Source of the DNA: an uncultured Alphaproteobacteria bacterium
GTDB lineage: Bacteria; Pseudomonadota; Alphaproteobacteria; Rhizobiales; Xanthobacteraceae
Length of the DNA: 64,000 nucleotides
Assembly: GCA_963828475.1 (NCBI GenBank)
Contig: CAWHFN010000012.1
Span: 25,439 to 89,438, forward strand
Direction of reading: 5' to 3'
Shown: piece after piece, positions 12,402 through 31,659 of the stretch
How positions within the stretch are numbered: position 1 is the first letter of the stretch
Layout of the letters: the number at the start of each line of letters is the position of its first letter
The notes under the pieces: model-generated
Database searches by the model: none
Told to the model about the DNA's origin: nothing
What the model saw: only the letters and a program-made list of their open reading frames with translations
Translations under genes and position numbers: made by a program

Positions 12402-13019
12402 ATGATGGGGCGTGGGCTCGCGTTGTTACTCGTAGGACTGCTCGGCGGCTGCATGCAAGCGACGCTTGCGCCGTCATCGAATGCCAGTTTGACCGCAAGG
12501 GATCGGCAGTTGCTCGCCCACCCGCCTTATGCGCAGGCGAGCATTCCCGAAACATATCGCCGACATATTGTCGACTACACGCGCAGGGAGCAGCCGGGCA
12601 CCATCCTGGTCGATACCAACGCGCGTTTTCTCTACTACGTCCTGCCGGGCGGCAAGGCGATCCGCTATGGCGTGACGGTGGGGGAAGAAGCGCTGGCCTG
12701 GTCAGGCGTCGCCACGGTTGGCCGCATGGCTGAATGGCCGGATTGGATCCCGACGGCGGAGATCCAGGCGCGGCTCGGCCCCTACCCGAAGCGCATTGCC
12801 GGAGGTCCGGCCAATCCGCTGGGCGCGCGGGCGCTCTATCTTTACGAGGGCAACAAGGACACCCTGTACCGCATCCATGGCACCAACCAGCCGGAATATA
12901 TCGGCCATGCCATCTCGTCCGGCTGCATCCGCATGACCAACGAGGACGTTATCGATCTCGTGAACCGGGTGAAGCCAGGCGCGATCGTCGTCGTCCTCCC
13001 GCCGGGCCGGAGTGCGTAG
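12402..13019 (+). CDS. L,D-transpeptidase (YkuD/ErfK family) lipoprotein
   Basis: LLGGC lipobox, NPLGARALYL and YRIHGT…SSGCIRM catalytic motif; RBS GGAGG. Confidence 0.9.
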   Translation: MMGRGLALLLVGLLGGCMQATLAPSSNASLTARDRQLLAHPPYAQASIPETYRRHIVDYTRREQPGTILVDTNARFLYYVLPGGKAIRYGVTVGEEALAWSGVATVGRMAEWPDWIPTAEIQARLGPYPKRIAGGPANPLGARALYLYEGNKDTLYRIHGTNQPEYIGHAISSGCIRMTNEDVIDLVNRVKPGAIVVVLPPGRSA

Positions 13020-18956: not shown

Positions 18957-20885
18957 CTAGATCGTGACCTGCGTTCCCACTTCCACCACGCGGCCGGTCG
19001 GAATCTGGAAATAATCCGTGGCGTCGTTGGCGGAGCGGCTAAGGCGGATGAACAGCAAATCCTGCCAGCGCGGCATGCCCGAATGCGCGGCCGGCTTCAG
19101 CGCGCGGCGGGACAGGAAGAACGACGTCGACATGATGTCGAACTGCCAGCCGAGCTTGCGGGCGATCGCCAGCGTCTTCGGCACGTTGGGCTGCTCCATG
19201 AAGCCGAATTTCAGCGTCACCCGCGAGAAGGTCTCGCTGAGTTGCTCCATCCGCACCCGCTCGGCCGGGTCGATCCGCGGCGTCGGCGCGGTCTCGATGG
19301 TGAGGATGACGTTCTTCTCGTGCAGCACCTTGTAGTGCTTGAGGCTGTGCATCAGCGCCGTTGGCGCACATTCGGGATCGCTGGTCAGGAACACGGCCGT
19401 GCCCGAGACGCGCTGCGGCGGACGCTTCTCCAGCATCGCCACCAGATCGGCCAGCGGAAATTCCAGCTTGCGTGATTTTTCGAACAGCAGCCGGCTGCCG
19501 CGCCGCCACGTGTACATCAGGAGCATCACAATGCCGCCGAGCGCCAGCGGCACCCAGCCGCCCTCGAACACCTTCAACAGATTGGCGGCGAGGAAGGTGA
19601 GATCGAGGAACAAAAACGGTGCGATCAGCGCTGCCGCCGCGACCGGCGACCATTTCCAGACCCGCCAGATCACGACAAAGCCCATCATGGCCGTGACCAC
19701 CATGGTTCCGGTCACGGAGATGCCATAGGCCGAGGCCAGCGCGCTCGACGAGCGGAACAGACCCACCAGCAGTATCACCGCAATCAACAGCAGCAGATTG
19801 ATGCGGGGAATGTAGATCTGGCCGGAATGGGCTTCCGACGTATGGCGAATTTCGAACCGCGGCAGCAGCCCAAGCTGGATCGCCGTACGCGTCAGCGAAT
19901 AGGCGCCGGTGATGACGGCCTGGCTCGCGATCACGGTCGCCGCCGTCGCCAGCGCCACCATCGGGATCAGCGCCCAGTCCGGGAACATCAGGAAAAACGG
20001 ATTCTCGATCGTCTTGGGGTCGGCGATCAACAGCGCGCCCTGCCCCAGATAATTTATCGCCAGCGACGGCAGCACGATGAAGAGCCAGGCGGTCTGGATC
20101 GGCCGCTTGCCGAAATGGCCGAGGTCGGCGTAGAGCGCCTCCGCGCCGGTGACGGCCAGAAACACCGCGCCGAGCGTCACGAAGCCGATCATGCCGTGAT
20201 GGAGCATGAAGGAGACGGCATGAAACGGGTTCAGCGCCAGCAGCACTTCGGGATGACGCGCAATCTGCGGCACGGCCGCGACCGCGATGACGGCGAACCA
20301 GACGCACATCACCGGCCCGAAGAACGCAGCGACGCGCGCGGTGCCGCGGGATTGCACGGCAAACAGCGCCACCAGGATGATCACCGTCAGCGGCACGACA
20401 TAGTGCTCGAAGGTTACCGTGACGAGCTTGATGCCCTCGATCGCCGACAATACCGACAGCGCCGGCGTAATGACTGCGTCGCCGTAAAACAGCGCGCCGG
20501 AAATGATGCCGAGCAACATGATTGCGGCCCCGCCCCTGGTGACCGCGCGCTGCGCCAGCGCCATCAGCGCCAGCGTTCCGCCCTCGCCATTATTGTCGGC
20601 GCGCAGCAGGATGACGACGTATTTCAGCGTCACCACCACGATCAGCGCCCACAGGATCAGCGAGAGCACGCCGAGCACGGCCTGCGGCGCGGCAGCGGCT
20701 GAAGTCGTCCCGCTGGCGGCAACCACCGCCTCGCGCAGCGCGTAAAGCGGGCTGGTGCCGATGTCGCCATAGACGACGCCGATGCTGCCGAGCATCAGCG
20801 CCCTGAAGGTGGCCGTGGAATGCGCTTCGCCATGCCCATTGGCCGCGGGCGTTTCCACCGCGGGGATCGCAAACTGGACTGACAT
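18957..20885 (-). CDS. kup: KUP/HAK/KT potassium transporter, copy 1
   Basis: [32 protein letters not shown] and [10 protein letters not shown] motifs; start ATG 20885. Confidence 0.95.
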
Positions 20886-21035
20886 GAGAGGGGGCCTCGT
20901 TTGCCGCACTGCACAATGCAGGAGGGCAGCCCTATACTCCCAGCACGCCTGCATAGGTTAGCCGGAATTCAGGCCTCCGCTATGCGTCGCCCGCATGGAT
21001 CGGAACAGTCCGCCGATATGAATAATCATTATGTA

Positions 21036-22934
21036 TCAGATAGTTACCTGAGTTCCAACTTCCACCACCCGGCCAGTGGGGATCTGGAAGTAGTCGGTGG
21101 CGTCGTTCGCCGACCGGCTCATGGCGATGAACAGATGGTCCTGCCACAGCGGCATGCCCGACTGCGCCGAGGGCTTGAGTGACCGCCGCGACACGAAGAA
21201 CGACGTCGCCATGATGTCGAACTGCCAGCCGAGTTTGCGCGCGATCACCAGCGCCTTGGGTACGTTCGGCGATTCCATGAAGCCGAACCGCAATCGCACG
21301 GTGGAAAACTTCTCGCTGATGGCTTCCATCTTGACCCGCTCGGACAGATCGACGCGCGGCGTCTCGGCGGTTTCGATGGTCAGGATCACATTGTGCTCAT
21401 GCAGCACCTTGTTGTGCTTGAGGTTGTGCATCAGCGCGGTCGGCACGAAGCTCGGATCGGAGGTGAGAAACACCGCCGTGCCCTTGACGATGTGGGGCGG
21501 ACGCTTTTCCAGGCTCTTGATCAGGTCCGCCAGCGGCACCTCGATGCGCCGCGTCTTGGCGACCAAGATCGTCGCACCCCGACGCCAGGTCCAGATCATC
21601 ACCGCCACGGAGATGCCGAACAGCAGCGGCACCCAGGCGCCTTCGAACAGCTTCAAGAGGTTGGCGGCAAAGAAGCTCATGTCGACGACGACGAAAGGCA
21701 GGATCACGGCCGCTGCCGTCGCCGCGCGCCAGTTCCACAATTTCCAGACCACGACAAAGCCCATGATGCCGTCGACCACCATGGTCGTGGAAACGGCGAT
21801 GCCGTAGGCCGACGCCAGACCGCTCGAGGTGCGGAACAATAGCACCAGCAGCACGACCCCGATCAGCAGCAGCCGGTTGACGCGCGGCAGATAGATCTGG
21901 CCGGCATGGGTTTCCGAGGTATAGCGAACCTCGAAGCGCGGCAGGAGGCCGAGCTGCACGGCCTGACGGATCAGCGAAAAGGCGCCTGTGATCACCGCCT
22001 GGCTCGCGATCACGGTCGCAGCCGTCGCCAGCACCACCAGCGGCAGCAGCAGGATTTCGGGGACCAGCCGGTAGAACGGATTTTCGATCGCCGCCGGATT
22101 GGACAACACCAGCGCGCCCTGCCCGAAATAATTGATCAGTAGCGCCGGCATCACGAGATAGAACCATCCGGCCTGGATCGGCTTGCGTCCGAAATGGCCG
22201 AGATCGGCGTAAAGCGCCTCGCCGCCGGTCACGGCCAGAAACACCAGGCCCATCGTCACCAACCCGATGGTGCCGTGGGAAAGCATGAACCAGATAGCAT
22301 ACCAGGGATTGATCGCCGCCATGACCGTGGGATCGTCCGAAATGTGGACGAGGCCCATCACCGCCAATGTCGCGAACCAGATCACCATGACCGGCCCGAA
22401 GGCGGAGGCGACGCGCGCGGTGCCGCTGCTCTGCACCGAGAACAGGACGACCAGAATGAAGATCGTCAGCGGCACCACATAATGTTCGAGCCCGGGCGTG
22501 ACCAGCTTGAGACCTTCGACCGCCGACAGCACCGAAATCGCCGGCGTGATCATGGAATCGCCGATGAACATCGAGGCGCCAACCACGCCGAGCGCCAGCA
22601 ACGGCCAGCTCCGCCGGCCGAGCGCCCGCTGCCCCAGCGCCATCAGCGACAACGTACCGCCCTCGCCGTTGTTGTCGGCGCGCAACAGCAGCAGCACATA
22701 TTTGGCGGTCACGACGATGAACAACGACCACAGGATCAGCGAGAGCACGCCGAGAACGATGGTGCGCGACACCGGCGCCCCATTTGCGGCGTGGGTAACG
22801 GCCTCACGGAATGCATACAGCGGCGAGGTTCCGATATCGCCGAACACGACGCCGATGCTTCCCAGCGTCAAGGCCAAAAAGCCTGAGGTGGCCTGCCCCT
22901 CATGGGCTTCGGTAGATGTGACGCTGACAGTCAT
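21036..22934 (-). CDS. kup: KUP/HAK/KT potassium transporter, copy 2
   Basis: [25 protein letters not shown] and the same C-terminus; start ATG 22934. Confidence 0.95.
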
Positions 22935-23092
22935 GATGGAGGGGAACGTTCTCGTCGTTGGTTTGATCCGGGCGGCTATCGACGCTTCCGCGCTGCCTGT
23001 CAATCGTCGGGCAAGCATAGCACCGCATGCGATGCGTAGCTCACGCAAAGCGGATCGAAATGACGAGATGGTATTATGGTAGTTCCGCCGTA

Positions 23093-23920
23093 TTACGGCT
23101 TGAGGTTTGGCGGAAGCGGCGGATTTTCGCGCATCAATGTGATGGTGACGCGACGGTTTGCCGGCAATGTCGGATCGTCGGGAAACAATGGCTGGCTGTC
23201 GGCCCTGCCGCCGACGGCGAAGATATGCGACGGCGGCAAACCCTCGCGTTCGAGAATCTGGCGCACGGCGTTGGCGCGGTCCGCCGACAGATCGAACGCG
23301 CCATATTCGCTGCGCGCCGGCACGAAACCGGCCGAGGTGTGGCCGACAATGTTGACCCGCAGCGGGGTCGCCTTCAACGGCACGGCCAGTTTCTGGATCA
23401 GCCGGCGGGTGCGGTCGTACGGCACCTTGGAGCCGTCGGCGAACATCGAGCGCCCGTCCTGATCGACGATTTCGAGATTGAGCCCCTCTCTGGTTTCCTC
23501 GAACATGATGTGCTTGGACACTTCGGTCAGTTCCGGCATGTCCTGCAACGCCTGGCGCAACGAGGCCGAGGCGAGCGCGAACTCGCGATCGACCTTCAGT
23601 CGGGCGCCGACCTCACTCTGCCGGTCCTTTTCGTCGGGTGTCGGCGTATTGGAGGCGTCCTCAGGCGAAATATGCGCGACATTCTTCATATTCGGCCGCG
23701 TCGGCAGGCCGTCGGATTCGACGATGCCGGAATATCGGGCCTCGGTCTGCACGCCGAACGCTTCACGCATCGAGCCGGCGACGATCTTCAACTTGGCGGC
23801 ATCCTGCGTGGAAAATGCGACCAACATCACGAAAAATGCCAGCAGCAGCGCCATCAGATCGGCAAAGGTCACGAACCAGCCGTGGCCGCCGTGCGCCTCT
23901 TCGCGTTTTTTCTTGGCCAT
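23093..23920 (-). CDS. motB: Flagellar stator B subunit (MotB/PomB family, OmpA-like domain)
   Basis: [21 protein letters not shown] segment; [14 protein letters not shown] and NRRV peptidoglycan-binding motifs. Confidence 0.9.
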
Positions 23921-23951
23921 GCTCTATCTCCCGCCGGGATGCCGTCGTCGA

Positions 23952-24725
23952 TCAGGCAGGAACCAGTTCGCCTTCGTCGTGGCGATGTTTTTCAGGCAGG
24001 TAGGCCAGCAGCATCTCGCGCACCAGCGCCGGGCTCTTGGAATCGCGGATCATCAGGATGCCGTCGATGATCAGCGTGCGATTGGTTTCCTCGTCGAGCA
24101 GCTTGCCGTGCAGCTTGTCGGCAATCGGCAGGCAGATCAGGTTCGCCACCAGCGCGCCGTAGAGCGTCGCCAGCAGTGCGGTCGCCATAAACGGGCCGAG
24201 CTTCGAGGGGTCCGACATGTTCGAAAACATCTGCACCATGCCGATCAGGGTTCCAATCATGCCGAACGCAGGAGCGCAGTCACCCATGGCGCGATAGATC
24301 TTGCTGCCTTCGTTGAGATGCATCAGGAAGTTGTCGCGGTCGCGCTCCATGTTGTCGCGGATGAATTCGAGATCGTAGCCGTCGGCGACGTAGCGAATGC
24401 CCTTAGCGAGAAACGGCTCGGCGGTTTCGACTTTTTCCAGTCCAACCGGACCCTGCTTGCGGGCAATCTCGGCGATGCGAGCTAGTTCGTCGACCAGATC
24501 GCGCGCCGACAGCCGGCTCATCGTGAAGGCAAACTTCAGACCCAGCGGCAGACCGTGCAGCATGACGCCCAGCGGAAATCTGATCATGGTCGCGGCGGTT
24601 GTGCCGCCGAAGATGATGATCATCGCGTGTTCGCTGATGAACATGTGCAGATCGCCGCCCATGAACACCATCGCCGCAATAACGGCGAAACCAGCCACAA
24701 GCCCGGCGGCCGTCATAATATCCAT
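23952..24725 (-). CDS. motA: Flagellar stator A subunit (PomA-like)
   Basis: APAFGMIGTLIGMV and ALLATLYG motifs; start ATG 24725 (MDIMTAAG). Confidence 0.9.
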   Translation of the reverse strand: MDIMTAAGLVAGFAVIAAMVFMGGDLHMFISEHAMIIIFGGTTAATMIRFPLGVMLHGLPLGLKFAFTMSRLSARDLVDELARIAEIARKQGPVGLEKVETAEPFLAKGIRYVADGYDLEFIRDNMERDRDNFLMHLNEGSKIYRAMGDCAPAFGMIGTLIGMVQMFSNMSDPSKLGPFMATALLATLYGALVANLICLPIADKLHGKLLDEETNRTLIIDGILMIRDSKSPALVREMLLAYLPEKHRHDEGELVPA

Positions 24726-24810
24726 GAAAAACTCCGACGCGTACGCGATACCCGGCCATTCTGGACGGTGCGCGACCCAAGCAACGTAGCGCAAACCTAC
24801 GACCTCGCCA

Positions 24811-24916: not shown

Positions 24917-25551
24917 TTACCACCTCAGGATACGCCTGCCGGCGAAATAGCCGGCCAGCACCACGGAGCCGATGGCGAGTGGATACCAGGTGATGACGAA
25001 CAACGGACTGTCGTCGAAGCAGTTCGCCGCATAGAATACGGCTGCAAGGCTGCCCGCAGCAAGACCAGCCGCCGCGCCGGCCAATCCCGGATTTGCCGGC
25101 GCACCGCTTTTCAGCGCCATGATGAAGAGCGCGAGCGGACCGCTGGCGAGCAGCGGGATCAATGTCATGCAGTTCGGGGCGTTGCTGCCGACCAGGCGGA
25201 CCGACCAGTCCGATCGCGATGTCGTCAGCAATTCGGCAGCGACGCCGGCGGCAAGCAGCATCAACGGAACGAGCAGCAATCTGGCCCACCAGCCCCGTTC
25301 GAATACCGGCCCGATGCTTCGGTACAATGCGGCCAGAGATACCGCAGCGAGCGGCACGACGACCGCAAATTTGAACAGGAAGCGAACGGTGCGCAGCGCG
25401 GCGTCGATGTCGTCGCGGAAGCCGATCCTGGAGAAGAAAAAATCGCAACAACGGCGATGGCCGGCACGAAGGCCGCCAAGAACGTCAGCCACGGTTTTCG
25501 TCCGACGACCCGGTCGGCAACCAGCGCCTGAATGAAATCTTCCGTTGTCAT
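24917..25551 (-). CDS. NrsF/OsrA-like (DUF1109) anti-sigma membrane protein; -1 frameshift in an A6 run near 25437-25442
   Basis: MTTEDFIQAL start, FLFKF, NCMTLIPLLASGP, GAPANPGLAGA and NCFDDSPLFVITWY motifs; 635 nt, one short of 212 codons. Confidence 0.75.
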
Positions 25552-25701: not shown

Positions 25702-26238
25702 TCAGGGCCTCGGGGCGAGTTGCTCCAGCGTTTTGCGCACCTGATCGTGGTGCCTCCGTCGCGCGATCCATTCCTCCAGCGACAGCTTGCCGGGTCCACC
25801 CAACGCCAGCGCCACCAGCCCAGCCAGATAAAGCAGCAGGATTTCGTAGCCGACCGACCCGAATCTGATTCCGGTTTCGGTGACTTCCGCGAGCTTCACC
25901 GAGAAGAACCCGTATGGCAGGTGGACCGTAACGAGCGCCGTCAGCAGAACGCCCGCCATCGGTATGCTGACCCACGGGATCAATACGCCAAGCATCACCG
26001 CCGCGCCCCCGATCAGTTCCGTCAGCGTCGCCGCCCATGCCGCCAACTCGGGCGCGGGGACGCCGAGCGTGTGCAGAACGACCGCGAAAGTCTCCGGGCC
26101 ACGCGAGAACTTGGCATAGCCATGGGCCATGAAGCCGTAGCCGACCGCAAGGCGGATCGGCAGCGGCGCCCAGGCGGCAAGCGCGGGCATCAATGACGTC
26201 GAGGCTTTCTCGGAAGGCGGGCTTGGAATTTTCATCAT
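25702..26238 (-). CDS. DoxX family membrane protein
   Basis: RLAVGYGFMAHGYAK, ELIGGAAVMLG, GYEILL and GPGKLSLE motifs; start 26238. Confidence 0.85.
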   Translation of the reverse strand: MMKIPSPPSEKASTSLMPALAAWAPLPIRLAVGYGFMAHGYAKFSRGPETFAVVLHTLGVPAPELAAWAATLTELIGGAAVMLGVLIPWVSIPMAGVLLTALVTVHLPYGFFSVKLAEVTETGIRFGSVGYEILLLYLAGLVALALGGPGKLSLEEWIARRRHHDQVRKTLEQLAPRP

Positions 26239-26286: not shown

Positions 26287-26303
26287 CCTTAAGCCAGCCT
26301 TAA
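26287..26303. promoter_or_regulatory. OmpR-family tandem box CCTTAAGCCAGCCTTAA, copy upstream of doxX
   Basis: Identical to 29583-29599; 11-bp periodic direct repeat. Confidence 0.7.
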
Positions 26304-26339: not shown

Positions 26340-27005
26340 TCAGAGAACCACGACCTTGGCGCCGAGCGGAACGCGGGCATAGAGATCGATGACGTCCTGG
26401 TTCATCATGCGGATGCAGCCGGAGGAAACCGCCTTGCCGATGCTGTCGGGCTCGGTCGTGCCATGGATCCGGTAGCGCGTGTCCTGCCCGTTCCTGAACA
26501 GGTAGAGCGCCCTGGCGCCGAGCGGATTTCCCGCGCCGCCGTCCATGCCGCCGGCCCACTTCGCGTAGCGTTTCGGCTCGCGCGCGATCATGGCCGGCGT
26601 CGGCGTCCAATGCGGCCATTCCTTCTTCTCCTGCACCGTGCCCGTGCCCGCAAAGGCCAGCCCTTCGCGGCCGACGCCGACGCCGTAACGGATGGCCTTG
26701 CCGCCTTTCTGGACCAGATAGAGAAAGCGCTTGTGGGGGTCGACCACGACGGTGCCAGGCGGGTTCGTCGAGCGATAGTCGACGATCTGCTTGAGGTATT
26801 GAGGATCGACATGCGATGTGTCGACGGCGTCCACCGCAAATTTCTCGGCCGCGCGCGCGGCGTAATGCGCGGTCACCGGCGACGGAACGCCTGAAAATTC
26901 GGAGTTTCGTAGCCCGTCGCCGGTGACCGCGCATCCGGCAAGGGCGAGCGACAGCAGCAATGCGGCGAGCCGCCGGCGTGCCTGTCGAGCGAACAGGTTC
27001 ATCAT
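26340..27005 (-). CDS. L,D-transpeptidase (YkuD family) lipoprotein
   Basis: LAGC lipobox, NPLGARALYL, YRIHGT…SSGCIRM. Confidence 0.9.
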   Translation of the reverse strand: MMNLFARQARRRLAALLLSLALAGCAVTGDGLRNSEFSGVPSPVTAHYAARAAEKFAVDAVDTSHVDPQYLKQIVDYRSTNPPGTVVVDPHKRFLYLVQKGGKAIRYGVGVGREGLAFAGTGTVQEKKEWPHWTPTPAMIAREPKRYAKWAGGMDGGAGNPLGARALYLFRNGQDTRYRIHGTTEPDSIGKAVSSGCIRMMNQDVIDLYARVPLGAKVVVL

Positions 27006-27041
27006 GATTTCGGTATCCGGATTAGGTTTGTGCAGCCTGGA

Positions 27042-27686
27042 CTATTTGGTCGTCTTCGCCCGCGCCCGCGCATCCGCCACGACCTTGATGAAGCCGTCAT
27101 AGTTGAGCGCCTGGTTGACCTTGTAGGCGCCGACCAGGAAGCCGGGAGTGCCTTGCAGGCCGATCGCGTCGGCAATGCTCAGGTTGCGCTTGATCAGGCG
27201 CAGGATGTCATCGGCGTGCGCCGCGATATCGGCGTCGAGCCGCGGCTGGTCGACGCCGGTCTTTCGGACCGCCTCCAGCATCTGCTCCCGGGAGATGCCG
27301 TAGCCCGGGATATCCATCAGCGCATGGTGAACCGGCAGATATTGGTCCTGATATTTCGCACCCAGCGCCAGCCGGGCGCCGACGATCGAGGTCTCGGCCA
27401 GGATCGGCCAGTCCTTGTAGACGAGGCGGATATTGCCGTCGGCCTTGACGATCTTTTCAAGGCTCTTTGCCGCCATCTTGCAGTACGGGCAGTTGTAGTC
27501 GAAGAAATCGACAACGGTGAGATCGCCATCGGGATTTCCAGCCACCGGCGCGTCCGGATCGTTCAGGATCATGTCGTGCGTGATGTGATTGTCGTCAGCG
27601 CGCGCCTGTCCTGGAATGACGAGTACGGCGGACATCGCCGCCAAGCGCAGGAATCCGGCGCGAGATATCGGATCGAGCATGTTCAT
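27042..27686 (-). CDS. DsbA-family (Com1/ScsC-like) thioredoxin-fold oxidoreductase
   Basis: FFDYNCPYC active site, YKDWPIL and GTPGF cis-Pro loop; export signal; RBS GGAG. Confidence 0.85.
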   Translation of the reverse strand: MNMLDPISRAGFLRLAAMSAVLVIPGQARADDNHITHDMILNDPDAPVAGNPDGDLTVVDFFDYNCPYCKMAAKSLEKIVKADGNIRLVYKDWPILAETSIVGARLALGAKYQDQYLPVHHALMDIPGYGISREQMLEAVRKTGVDQPRLDADIAAHADDILRLIKRNLSIADAIGLQGTPGFLVGAYKVNQALNYDGFIKVVADARARAKTTK

Positions 27687-27701: not shown

Positions 27702-29537
27702 TTAGACGCGTGAGGCCTTGATGCGTGAGACCTTGGCGATCTTGCCGAGGAACCCATCGACGCCGATGTCGCCCACGACGCGCGCCTCGGCGATCTCGGT
27801 TCCGTCGGGATTGAGGAAGACGATCGTCGGCGGCCCGACCACCGCGAAACGCTGCATCAGATTTTTGCTCGACAGGTCGAAATGGGTGAGGTCGGCGCGA
27901 ATGAGCAGCATGCCGCGAAGCCGCTGCTGCACCTCGTCGCGGGCAAAGATGTTTTGCTCCATGAGCCGGCATTCGGTGCACCAGTCGGCCGAAAAATCGA
28001 CCATGATGGCCGTGCCCTGCTTGCGGCCGAGGTCGATCGCCTTGTCGAGTTCGGCTTCATTGGACACGACCTGGAAACCGCCGGCGCGGGCGTCCGGGGC
28101 CGAGGCGACCAGGCCGGCGGAAATCAGGGGCCGCAGCGGCCCATAGTCGGAGAGCGCGGCTCCGATGACGAGGACACAACCGTAAAACAGCGCCAGCACG
28201 CCGGAGGCGGCTCTCGCAAGGTTGGCCGGCCGCCACCGCGGCTCCTCAAACAGCGAGGGAACATCGAGGTAGAGGCCGACTGCGATACACAATCCGCCCG
28301 ATGCGGTCGCGGTTAGCGCGACCGGCAAAACGCGCGAAGCCATCCAGATCGCCAGCGCGACGAAGATGAAGCCGAAAATATGCTTCACACGCAACAGCCA
28401 TGCACCCGAGCGCGGCAGTATCCGTGTGCCGAGCACGCCGAACGCGATCAGCGGAAGCCCCATGCCGAGCCCGAGCGAGAACAGCGCCAGCGAACCGCGC
28501 AGCACATCGCCGGTTTGCGCCACATACACCAGCGCCGCGGCGAGTGGCGGCGTCACGCATGGACCGACAATCAGCGCCGATCCAAAGCCCATAAGTGCGG
28601 CGCCGCCGATCGACCCTTTGCTTCCGGCTGCCGCCGTCAGCCTCGCGGTCCAGGATTGCGGCAACTGCAATTCGTAAAGACCAAACATCGATAGCCCGAG
28701 GGCGACAAATGCCGCACTCATGGCCAGCACAGCCGGCGGCGTCTGCAGCGATGCCTGCAGATTTTCGCCGGACCAGGCAACGAAGATTCCAAGCGTGCCG
28801 TACGCTGTCGCCATCGCCAGAACGTAGGACACGGAGAGCACGAAACTGCGCGGCACGGATATACGGCCACCGGCGCGTGCGAGCATTCCCGACAGAATCG
28901 GAATCATCGGAAACACGCAGGGCGTCAGCGACAACAGCAGTCCGAATCCCAAGAATGCCAGCACCGTCGAAGCAAGGCTGCCGCCGAGCGTGCCGGCCTC
29001 GGTTTCGAGGCCGCCCGACGACGAAGGCGTCCAGGTCGGAACGTCGGGATTATCCTCGTTGCCGCCATGGGTCGGCGGGGGCATCGTCGCGCTTCCCGCC
29101 TGCGCGTCCTCGATCAGCAATGTCGCGAGGTCGATAGCCTTCGAGATTGGCGGGTAGCAGATCGAATTTTCAGCGCAGCCCTGATAGGTGACGACGATGC
29201 GACCCTTCTCCGGCAGCAATTCCGCCGGTACCGTCGCGATGCCCGTGCCGTGATAGACTTCGGTCAGACCGAAATTCGGATCGTCTTTGGGGTCGCCCTT
29301 TTCCGCCGCGATCCTGATGCGCTGGCCAGCGAGGGTGACGGCAATCCGGTCACGATAGAGGTAGTGGCCGGGGGCGATCGACCAGGTCAGTTCGATCCCC
29401 TCCTCCTCATCCAGTTGCGCGCGGAGCTGGAAGGCCTGATCCGCCGGCATCGGCGTCGCCGCCCAAACGGAACCGGCGGCAGCCATCACAAGCCTCAGCA
29501 GCAACGTAACGAAACCGGCAATGCGAACGTAGGGCAT
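27702..29537 (-). CDS. dsbD: Thiol:disulfide interchange protein DsbD
   Basis: Three redox modules: QGCAENSICYPP, LTPCVFPM/GPCVTPP and ADWCTEC; start ATG 29537 after AGAAGG. Confidence 0.92.
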   Translation of the reverse strand: MPYVRIAGFVTLLLRLVMAAAGSVWAATPMPADQAFQLRAQLDEEEGIELTWSIAPGHYLYRDRIAVTLAGQRIRIAAEKGDPKDDPNFGLTEVYHGTGIATVPAELLPEKGRIVVTYQGCAENSICYPPISKAIDLATLLIEDAQAGSATMPPPTHGGNEDNPDVPTWTPSSSGGLETEAGTLGGSLASTVLAFLGFGLLLSLTPCVFPMIPILSGMLARAGGRISVPRSFVLSVSYVLAMATAYGTLGIFVAWSGENLQASLQTPPAVLAMSAAFVALGLSMFGLYELQLPQSWTARLTAAAGSKGSIGGAALMGFGSALIVGPCVTPPLAAALVYVAQTGDVLRGSLALFSLGLGMGLPLIAFGVLGTRILPRSGAWLLRVKHIFGFIFVALAIWMASRVLPVALTATASGGLCIAVGLYLDVPSLFEEPRWRPANLARAASGVLALFYGCVLVIGAALSDYGPLRPLISAGLVASAPDARAGGFQVVSNEAELDKAIDLGRKQGTAIMVDFSADWCTECRLMEQNIFARDEVQQRLRGMLLIRADLTHFDLSSKNLMQRFAVVGPPTIVFLNPDGTEIAEARVVGDIGVDGFLGKIAKVSRIKASRV

Positions 29538-29582: not shown

Positions 29583-29599
29583 CCTTAAGCCAGCCTTAA
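29583..29599. promoter_or_regulatory. OmpR-family tandem box CCTTAAGCCAGCCTTAA in the dsbD/response regulator divergent promoter
   Basis: CTTAAG-N5-CTTAAG; identical to 26287-26303. Confidence 0.75.
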
Positions 29600-29641: not shown

Positions 29642-30307
29642 ATGCGGATTTTGGTTGTTGAAGATGACCCGGTGCTCTCGGACGGATTGAAGGTCGGGCT
29701 CGGGCTATACGGCGCGACGCTCGACATCGTCGCCAGTTGCGCCGACGGTCACGCGGCGCTTGCGGCGGACGAATTCGACGCACTGGTTCTCGATCTGATG
29801 CTGCCGGACGGGTCTGGCCTCGATCTGTTGGCCGCGCTGCGCTCGCGCGGCGACCGCACTCCGGTGCTGCTGTTGACCGCGCTCGACGAAGTCGCTGACC
29901 GCATCAGGGGATTGGATGCCGGGGCGGACGACTATCTCGGCAAACCCTTCGATCTGGAGGAGCTTGCCGCCCGTGTCCGTGCCATCAGCCGGCGGAATGA
30001 GGGCCGCGCCTCGCCCCAGGCGTCCTACAATGGTGTGACGCTCAACCTCGCCCGACTGACCGTTACCGTCAGTGGAACATGCATCGGTCTTTCCCGCCGC
30101 GAGTTCGCCGTTCTCGCAGCGCTGATGGACCGGCCAGGCGCGGTTTTGTCCAAGAGCGACCTGGAAGCAAAGCTCTACGGCTGGCAGGAAGAAGTCGAAA
30201 GCAATACCGTCGAAGTCCACGTCCATAAATTGCGCACGAAAATCGGACGGACGAAGATCGAAACCCTGCGCGGGATCGGGTACCGGATGAGGCCCGTCGC
30301 CCCATGA
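29642..30307 (+). CDS. OmpR/PmrA/QseB-family response regulator (DsbR-like)
   Basis: LVVEDD, LDLMLPD, GADDYLGKPF and winged-helix VEVHVHKLRTK…TLRGIGY. Confidence 0.92.
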   Translation: MRILVVEDDPVLSDGLKVGLGLYGATLDIVASCADGHAALAADEFDALVLDLMLPDGSGLDLLAALRSRGDRTPVLLLTALDEVADRIRGLDAGADDYLGKPFDLEELAARVRAISRRNEGRASPQASYNGVTLNLARLTVTVSGTCIGLSRREFAVLAALMDRPGAVLSKSDLEAKLYGWQEEVESNTVEVHVHKLRTKIGRTKIETLRGIGYRMRPVAP

Positions 30308-31659
30308 ATTCGCTGAGAAGAAAACTCTTCCTGATCCTTGTCGCGGCCACCAGCCTGATATGGCTCGCCGCGACCTGCTGGATTTACGTCGGCGCCAGGC
30401 GGGAAGTCGAAAGCGTGCTGGACGCAAGACTGCAGGAAGCGGCGCGCATGGTGCTGTCGCTCGCGGGCAACGGCGTCGGTACCGCACAAAAGGGAGCAGA
30501 CCCCGGACAGGCTCCGGAGATCCTGAGTTACGAGCGACAGCTTTCCTGCCAGATATGGTCACTCGACGGCCGGCTGGTGGCGCGCTCCAGTGGAGCGCCG
30601 AACGAAAGCCTGAGCGACAGGAGAGCGGGCTTCTCCGAACGCCTCATCAACGGAGAGACGTGGCGCGTCTTTACGGCGGAAGACGGCGCCAAGGGCGTTC
30701 GCGTTCTGGTGGGAGACCGGCTCGGCCTGCGCGACCATTTCGTCGCGGAAATCATGAAGGGCATTCTCGCGCCGATGGCTCTTACGGTCCCATTGCTCGG
30801 ATTCCTGATCTGGGCAAGCCTCAATCGCGGGCTACGTCCGTTGCGGGGGCTCGCCGAAGAACTGGCGCGCAGAAGCGCCGACGACATGCGCCCCGTCGAG
30901 ACTGGCAAAATACCAACGGAAATCCGGCCGGTCATCGACTCGCTCAATTCCCTTTTCGCCAGGGTCCAGGATGCGTTGCGGCACGAGCGGGATCTCACCG
31001 CTTTCGCCGCACATGAGTTGCGGACGCCGCTGGCAGGATTGCGGACCCAGGCCCAGGTCGCAATGGCGGCCCGTGACGAGACAACGCGCGCCACGGCGCT
31101 CCGTCAAATCCTTGTCGGCGTCGATCGTACCACCCGCCTCGTTCGCCAGTTGCTCGCCATCGCGAAACTCGATTCGGCGCCGGAGACGATCCGGGCGAAC
31201 CAGATCAGCATCGGGGGCGTGATCGAAGAGGTCATCGACGCGCTGCCACTGTCGGACCGGGCCGTCCCCGTTACCGTCGATCCGGCCCTGACGGGCACCA
31301 TGGTTACGGCCAACCGGGAATTCCTTCTGCTGGCGGTTCGCAACCTGCATGAGAATGCCGCACGTCACATGTCGCAGCCGGGCGCCATTCGATGGTCGAT
31401 GGAGAAGGAATCCGATGCGCTTGCCGTTTATGTCGACGATGAGGGCCCGGGCATACCGCAGGAAGAGATTGCGCTGGTTACGAACCGTTTTTTCCGCGGC
31501 CGCAACAAGAGCCCGCTTGGGAGCGGCCTCGGACTATCAATTGTCGAGCTCGCCCTGCGCGCCAGCGGCGCACGGCTGATCCTCCAGAACAGAAGAGATG
31601 GGACTGGCCTGCGGGCGCAAATCGTATGGAGGCTCACGCCGGACGGCGTGACGCGGTGA
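30304..31659 (+). CDS. QseC-family sensor histidine kinase (DsbS-like)
   Basis: ATGA overlap with the regulator; periplasmic YERQLSCQIW (Cys82), HAMP, AAHELRTPL H-box, DEGPG and GSGLGL. Confidence 0.9.
   Translation: MNSLRRKLFLILVAATSLIWLAATCWIYVGARREVESVLDARLQEAARMVLSLAGNGVGTAQKGADPGQAPEILSYERQLSCQIWSLDGRLVARSSGAPNESLSDRRAGFSERLINGETWRVFTAEDGAKGVRVLVGDRLGLRDHFVAEIMKGILAPMALTVPLLGFLIWASLNRGLRPLRGLAEELARRSADDMRPVETGKIPTEIRPVIDSLNSLFARVQDALRHERDLTAFAAHELRTPLAGLRTQAQVAMAARDETTRATALRQILVGVDRTTRLVRQLLAIAKLDSAPETIRANQISIGGVIEEVIDALPLSDRAVPVTVDPALTGTMVTANREFLLLAVRNLHENAARHMSQPGAIRWSMEKESDALAVYVDDEGPGIPQEEIALVTNRFFRGRNKSPLGSGLGLSIVELALRASGARLILQNRRDGTGLRAQIVWRLTPDGVTR

Follow-up and report, generated by a model that had tools for sequence, protein, structure and literature searches.

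DsbG, which is fed by DsbD, preserves the catalytic cysteine of L,D-transpeptidases (LDTs) (PMC10907172), and copper specifically inhibits LDTs (PMC11390936, citing Peters 2018). DsbG and the ScsC proteins have the motif CPYC in common and show a similar redox potential. They also share a Thr-cisPro element and two thiolate-stabilising lysines (Salmonella ScsC T174-P175, K70 and K96) (PMC10907172). In Pseudomonas aeruginosa, the two-component genes dsbRS are divergent from dsbDEG; the sensor DsbS detects copper via its periplasmic Cys82, the regulator DsbR binds TTAA-N7-TTAA, and cognates are described from many phyla, among them a Rhizobium locus that contains dsbA (bioRxiv 10.1101/2020.08.17.255257). 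Here we analysed a stretch of 64,000 nucleotides from an uncultured alphaproteobacterium of the Xanthobacteraceae (assembly GCA_963828475.1, contig CAWHFN010000012.1, positions 25,439 to 89,438; hereafter the window), in which genes for DsbD, a ScsC-type oxidoreductase and an LDT of the YkuD family follow one another on the minus strand, next to a divergent regulator pair that resembles DsbRS.

Results

Gene order and conservation of the linkage

A compact run of minus-strand genes extends over 25.7 to 29.5 kb of the window. It starts with dsbD (27702-29537), which Pfam, NCBIfam and the translation identify as a three-domain DsbD. The next gene, 15 nt further on, encodes a thiol-disulfide oxidoreductase of the ScsC type with a CPYC active site (27042-27686; 214 amino acids, predicted to be periplasmic), whose DsbA fold is indicated by Pfam and solved relatives. 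It is followed by ykuD (26340-27005), a gene for a lipoprotein LDT of 221 amino acids, in which Pfam places the YkuD domain at residues 85-220. A preliminary description of the window had placed the start of ykuD 37 nt after the DsbA-like gene, and the coordinates of the open reading frames (ORFs) confirm this, with a spacer of 36 nt between the stop codon ending at 27042 and the ATG at 27005. A terminator scan revealed no terminator-like site at the junctions of the three genes, its few hits being all intragenic and not above chance, and a promoter scan of the region found no sigma-70-like promoter. Judged from the sequence, co-regulation and co-transcription of dsbD, the ScsC-like gene and ykuD are highly probable.

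The arrangement was compared across 80 loci that carry the closest relatives of the YkuD protein, from Bradyrhizobium, Afipia, Bosea, Microvirga, Xanthobacter, Mesorhizobium, Kaistia and others. Dsb genes (dsbD and/or a ScsC-like gene) were located directly upstream of the transpeptidase gene in all 78 loci with enough upstream DNA. The order dsbD, ScsC-like gene, ykuD was present in 42 loci, in 19 loci only the ScsC-like gene and ykuD came after the regulator pair, and 18 loci showed dsbD, a TlpA-like gene and ykuD. Within the operon, the ScsC-like/ykuD pair is kept most often; the gap between its two genes has a median of 31 nt (65 loci), and in seven loci they overlap by 4 nt. The genes 3' of ykuD are variable and comprise doxX, a methyltransferase gene, a gene for a Blh-like protein, a second DsbA-like gene or unrelated genes. 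Therefore, the conserved unit ends with the transpeptidase gene. The Blh-type gene, found at L017:6743-8053 and in eight similar loci (mostly Bosea), encodes a fusion of BLH_phosphatase with a metallo-beta-lactamase fold of the persulfide-dioxygenase type, a sulfur/thiol-stress gene in the same neighbourhood.

Linkage of YkuD and thioredoxin-fold genes was also observed in other configurations. Two genomes (L091 and L115) show the reversed order, in which a DsbA-like gene comes after ykuD. Another family of the order has a copper-resistance cluster (L094:3318-12653) that comprises genes for a multicopper oxidase, two YkuD proteins, a ScsB/DsbD-like protein, a ScsC with the ScsC_N trimerisation domain and an HMA copper P-type ATPase. 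Furthermore, an island (L029:300-9600, also present in L025, L026, L028, L030 and L031) combines three YkuD genes, five thioredoxin-fold genes and two DsbR-type boxes. Its order is DsbA-like gene, YkuD gene with peptidoglycan-binding domain, DsbG/C-like gene, box, DsbD gene, TlpA-like gene and YkuD gene, followed by a divergent unit of YkuD gene, box and thioredoxin-like gene. Over 8-12.6 kb, the copies of the island in records named Shinella, Tardiphaga, Rhodospirillales, Bradyrhizobiaceae and a 'Bordetella' metagenome-assembled genome share 98.5-100% identity. Because it is near-identical across differently named genera, the sequence comparison indicates a recent horizontal spread of the island, unless contamination of some bins accounts for the match. 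A near-identity search against the PLSDB plasmids returned only short matches of 5-6%, hence a plasmid origin was not supported.

The transpeptidase and its clade

The YkuD protein matches the Pfam family YkuD (PF03734) with 85.4 bits against a cut-off of 23.4, and its nearest solved structure is 6v45 (2e-55). It contains the catalytic motif HGT...SSGCIRM and the lipobox LALAGC. Residues H181, S195, G196, C197 and R199 are invariant in 32 YkuD orthologues, and a search by regular expression found a lipobox-like motif in all 85 clade members checked. The transpeptidase is thus predicted to be exported to the periplasm as a lipoprotein. Besides the lipobox cysteine, the protein of the window contains one cysteine, and the same combination of a lipobox cysteine and a single other cysteine is found in 82 of the 85 transpeptidases of the operon clade.

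The genome encodes 19 YkuD matches in all. In a maximum likelihood tree of 117 rows, the operon-borne transpeptidases were placed on one side of a branch with a Shimodaira-Hasegawa-like approximate likelihood ratio test (SH-aLRT) support of 99, and the same clade was recovered with an SH-aLRT support of 90 in an IQ-TREE analysis of 105 rows, among them 29 additional unlinked homologues. The clade excludes nine other paralogues of this genome and about 50 unlinked homologues. FastTree (145 rows) placed one unlinked long-branch sequence, L125, inside it with a support of 58, which we regard as an artefact. The neighbours of L125 are unrelated genes, and IQ-TREE grouped it with other unlinked short LDTs. 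Two residues distinguish the clade from the paralogues, namely W150 in the RYAKW loop (codon 26556-26558; 96% versus 14% in paralogues) and M201 (codon 26403-26405; 92% versus 3%), which is located four residues after the catalytic cysteine (GCIRMM). W150 and M201 might shield or ligate copper.

The ScsC-like oxidoreductase and DsbD

The DsbA-fold protein matches the Pfam families Thioredoxin_4 and DSBA with 65 and 59 bits, respectively. Its best solved relatives are 3gyk (a Silicibacter DsbA-like protein, 1e-38), Salmonella ScsC 4gxz (2.9e-23) and Proteus ScsC 4xvw (2e-18), with the solved ScsC matches 6nen, 6mhh and 4xvw all at about 1e-18. Residues C66, P67, C69, K70, K91, G179-T180-P181 (the cis-Pro loop) and G186 are invariant in 32 ScsC-like orthologues, and the motif CP[YF]C is present in all 65 orthologues that adjoin ykuD. 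At the sequence level, the oxidoreductase belongs to the ScsC family and carries the reductase/isomerase signature of ScsC and DsbG. A Pfam search gave no hit for the ScsC_N trimerisation domain, and the mature N-terminus lies about five residues before the region that aligns to residues 54-223 of 4xvw. As an N-terminal trimerisation stalk is lacking, the protein is probably monomeric like Salmonella ScsC. Several of the ScsC-like orthologues start with a twin-arginine motif (MNRRTF, MHRRQFL, MRRRDFI), which suggests that these are exported by twin-arginine translocation (Tat) as folded, pre-reduced proteins. The motif is degenerate (SRAGFLR) in the copy of the window (27597-27686, minus strand) and in its nearest relatives.

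DsbD contains the Pfam domains DsbD_N, DsbD_TM and Thioredoxin_7, corresponding to the alpha, transmembrane and gamma domains, and reaches 501 bits with the NCBIfam model DsbD (cut-off 330). Its translation includes all six redox cysteines (YQGC..ICYPP, LTPCVFP, VGPCVTP, WCTEC). The ATG at 29537 is the likely start codon, as the longer ORF, with its GTG at 29783, overlaps the regulator gene. This is the only three-domain DsbD of the genome, which also encodes three short CcdA-like proteins. The 94%-complete assembly yielded no match to DsbB (PF02600) or VKOR (PF07884), which argues weakly against an oxidase role of the ScsC-like protein.

The regulator pair and its box

Divergent from dsbD, the plus strand encodes a DsbR-like response regulator of the OmpR/PhoB family (29642-30307; Pfam Response_reg and Trans_reg_C) and a DsbS-like sensor histidine kinase with a 2CSK_N periplasmic domain (30304-31659; Pfam). 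The kinase contains exactly two cysteines, Cys25 and Cys82, and the phospho-acceptor His237 (HELRTP). All 65 orthologues have a cysteine aligned with position 82, and 63 of the 65 have a histidine aligned with position 237. The regulator is divergent from the Dsb operon in 66 related loci. NCBIfam places the two-component pair nearest to QseBC/PmrAB (the regulator being PmrA/QseB-like), below the equivalog cut-offs.

The intergenic region of 104 nt that dsbD shares with the divergent regulator gene contains the 17-mer TTAAGGCTGGCTTAAGG, a direct repeat of the form TTAA-N7-TTAA, at 29583-29599 on the minus strand (box 1), 45 nt before the ATG of dsbD. An identical 17-mer (box 2) is located at 26287-26303, on the same strand, between ykuD and doxX. 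The two copies in the window compare with 0.04 expected by chance, and they are the only sites in the 6.46-Mb genome, even when two mismatches are allowed. In all 66 related loci, a TTAA-N7-TTAA box (TTAAGSCWGSCTTAA) precedes the regulator gene by 32-83 nt. The other transpeptidase gene of the window (YkuD at about 12600-12995) has no such box, as the preliminary description had also stated. Since the divergence, Cys82, the phospho-acceptor histidine and the TTAA-N7-TTAA box are conserved, the sequences identify the regulatory frame as a DsbRS-type two-component system, a kind that is already known; this likeness was judged by published features. By analogy with P. aeruginosa, copper would be the signal for the regulator pair.

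The gene behind box 2, doxX (25702-26238, minus strand), encodes a DoxX-family membrane protein of 178 amino acids (Pfam DoxX, 58 bits), with box 2 located 48 nt before its ATG. On the basis of this position, box 2 marks a putative second regulated promoter downstream of the transpeptidase gene. The RNA fold of the ykuD-doxX spacer was not significant (z = -1.6). The gene doxX thus carries its own copy of the box. It adjoins ykuD downstream in 11 of the 80 related loci, and does so only in the closest (Bradyrhizobium-like) relatives.

Neighbouring genes

Further downstream, 3' of doxX, frame analysis detected a gene for an NrsF/DUF1109-like membrane protein (24917-25551, minus strand), whose operon membership is uncertain. 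The gene is interrupted by one frameshift at a T-run at about 25441-25455. Its N- and C-terminal parts share one frame in nine of nine close relatives (L001-L009) and differ in frame in the window, and a Pfam search with the fragments gave no match. Either the gene is a pseudogene, or the frameshift stems from an assembly error in the homopolymer. A paralogue with 43% identity is encoded on contig C19. Just past the cluster, positions 18957-24794 (minus strand) contain two tandem genes for Kup-type K+ transporters (665 and 670 amino acids) and a gene of the MotA/ExbB family.

Discussion

Members of the Hyphomicrobiales rely heavily on LD-cross-links for polar growth. We propose that periplasmic copper or thiol oxidation would be sensed via Cys82 of the kinase, and that the phosphorylated regulator would bind the TTAA-N7-TTAA box in the divergent promoter as well as the second copy before doxX. 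The genes for DsbD, the ScsC-like protein and the transpeptidase would then be transcribed together. Electrons from cytoplasmic thioredoxin would be passed by DsbD to the ScsC-like protein, a direction of flow that we infer, and the ScsC-like protein would keep periplasmic thiols reduced and copper-free, with clients that may include the sole free cysteine of the lipoprotein transpeptidase. LD-transpeptidation could in this way continue while copper poisons the other transpeptidases of the cell. On balance, we lean slightly towards the reading that the dsbD-scsC-ldt operon is the main output of a DsbRS-type copper/thiol-stress system in which the ScsC-like protein protects the cysteine of the transpeptidase. 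Within this reading, the direct client relationship between the ScsC-like protein and the transpeptidase has a nearly even chance of being correct. A further-reaching version, according to which the operon is a mobile module of 'cross-linking insurance' whose W150/M201 transpeptidase clade works under copper only with its own ScsC/DsbD reductase, appears doubtful.

These results also bear on the preliminary description, which had built on the DsbD-fed protection of the LDT cysteine by DsbG and on the copper inhibition of LDTs. This background holds (PMC10907172; PMC11390936). The proposal that the operon co-produces a replacement transpeptidase and a dedicated reductase under metal or oxidative stress stands in part. 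Co-production under metal/thiol stress is strongly supported by the operon spacing, the DsbRS-type regulator with its box and the conserved synteny. The terms 'dedicated' and 'replacement' go further than these findings; stand-alone ScsC-like genes occur, and characterised ScsC proteins have other clients.

Several points weigh against the protection of the transpeptidase by the ScsC-like protein. Contact and redox exchange between the two proteins are among the things that we infer. A complex prediction with residues 31-214 of the ScsC-like protein and 58-221 of the transpeptidase (alignments of 32 rows each) returned a score of 0.00, which is no answer and counts neither way. Moreover, dsbD is not inside the operon in 19 of the 80 related loci. 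The linkage is also one-sided, as ScsC-like genes occur without YkuD in other genomes: eight of these contain ScsC-like genes with 45-53% identity and neither YkuD nor the regulator pair, and seven of the eight lack dsbD as well. Because of these stand-alone genes, the oxidoreductase family is not transpeptidase-specific. Characterised ScsC proteins act both as oxidase and as reductase and have the other clients CueP, ArtI and SodC. Pseudomonas DsbRS drives dsbDEG without a transpeptidase, so that general copper protection already explains the Dsb genes, and measured copper induction was not found in the literature searched for any member of this order.

The main rival explanation holds that the transpeptidase is co-regulated and not a client. 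The ScsC-like protein and DsbD would serve generally to buffer copper(I) and to repair disulfides, and the transpeptidase would separately reinforce the envelope, like the Cpx-induced ldtD. ScsC proteins do bind Cu(I) and repair many proteins, and stress-induced LDTs are known from the ChvGI and Cpx systems; together with the stand-alone ScsC-like genes and the Pseudomonas regulon, this gives the explanation an appreciable, though clearly minor, probability. It accounts less well for the ScsC-like/ykuD pair, which was kept, often with overlapping stop and start codons, in the 19 loci where dsbD left the operon. Furthermore, several separate YkuD clades adjoin different thioredoxin-fold genes in both orders, which is more than a shared regulon requires.

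Two other explanations concern the proteins themselves. The YkuD protein may not be mainly a 3-3 cross-linker and could instead tether outer-membrane proteins or lipoproteins to peptidoglycan, trim peptide stems, or serve as a sacrificial lipoprotein whose thiol binds copper, with W150 and M201 as part of a metal site. YkuD enzymes have diverse acceptors, this one is a short lipoprotein without an additional peptidoglycan-binding domain, and the two residues (GCIRMM in the case of M201) separate its clade from the paralogues. However, none of the catalytic residues varies, the protein is most closely related to ordinary LDTs of Hyphomicrobiales and no metal-binding motif has been demonstrated, which makes such a function improbable. 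Less probable still is that the DsbA-fold protein is an oxidase, that is, a true DsbA, with DsbD serving other partners, for instance in cytochrome maturation, and with the transpeptidase as an incidental neighbour. The DsbA fold and the Pfam match to DSBA would fit, and monomeric ScsC can show oxidase activity, but the invariant CP[YF]C with Thr-cisPro is the signature of DsbG and ScsC, dsbD is part of the same predicted transcript, and a search of the genome yielded no DsbB and no VKOR. The transpeptidase lacks a pair of cysteines that could be oxidised, and the synteny is far too conserved for an incidental neighbour.

The elements of the protective arrangement that we favour are known separately, namely DsbRS with dsbDEG, the protection of LDTs by DsbG and of CueP by ScsBC, and LDTs induced by stress. 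To our knowledge, only E. coli-type systems, in which the genes are scattered, have so far revealed copper poisoning of LDTs and its relief by DsbG. A search of the literature on L,D-transpeptidases or YkuD in connection with DsbD, ScsC, copper or operon retrieved no paper describing the linkage, and a 2025 review on LDTs and a study of Agrobacterium LDTs do not mention Dsb proteins. What is new here, in that it was not found in the literature searched, is an LDT clade as an integral and conserved member of Dsb operons. The relationship between transpeptidase and redox enzymes is written into the genome architecture, with a distinct clade that occurs, among the sequences compared, only inside copper/thiol-stress Dsb operons. 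Other clades have repeated the linkage independently, in a copper-resistance cluster and in an island that appears to spread between genera.

The conservation of the pairing across a bacterial order suggests that wall cross-linking is protected from copper poisoning. If the further-reaching version with its own transpeptidase clade is true, LDTs would be the physiologically decisive periplasmic copper target in these bacteria, and the operon would be the first one known to combine an enzyme of cell-wall synthesis with a dedicated redox guardian. The model makes it testable whether copper acts on wall cross-linking as a primary target in rhizobia and related bacteria, which clients ScsC-type proteins naturally have and how DsbRS-type regulons are built outside Pseudomonas. 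It may also be relevant to the agricultural use of copper, which affects soil and nodule bacteria.

Four described systems are close to the locus. In the case of the Cpx-induced LdtD of E. coli and the ChvGI-regulated LDTs of Agrobacterium, an envelope-stress two-component system likewise raises a particular LDT, but there the transpeptidase is not co-transcribed with thiol-redox enzymes. The Salmonella ScsBCD-CueP system and the ScsC proteins of Proteus and Caulobacter share with the window the protein family, the CPYC motif, the lysines equivalent to Lys70 and Lys96, the Thr-Pro element, a membrane reductase partner and the copper context, and in Salmonella the co-regulated protein CueP is a specific client that ScsC maintains in the reduced state. 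They differ in that the partner is ScsB instead of a canonical DsbD and the regulator CpxRA instead of a DsbRS-like pair. In addition, the ScsC_N trimerisation domain of Proteus and Caulobacter is absent here, and the candidate client is a transpeptidase and not a copper chaperone. P. aeruginosa DsbRS-dsbDEG corresponds to the locus in the divergent pair, the dsbD-led operon, the sensor with Cys82 and phospho-acceptor histidine, and TTAA-N7-TTAA in the shared intergenic region; the Pseudomonas operon consists of dsbD, dsbE and dsbG, whereas the one described here consists of dsbD, the ScsC-like gene and the LDT gene, with a boxed doxX in addition. The paper on DsbRS contains no mention of a transpeptidase (bioRxiv 10.1101/2020.08.17.255257). 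Finally, E. coli DsbG/DsbC and DsbD with LdtA/B/C (YbiS, ErfK, YcfS) show the same pairing of a DsbD-fed CPYC oxidoreductase with Thr-cisPro and YkuD transpeptidases with a single cysteine. The E. coli genes are not linked, and DsbG forms a V-shaped dimer with a DsbC fold there, whereas here an oxidoreductase of the monomer-type DsbA/ScsC fold is encoded in one operon with one transpeptidase clade.

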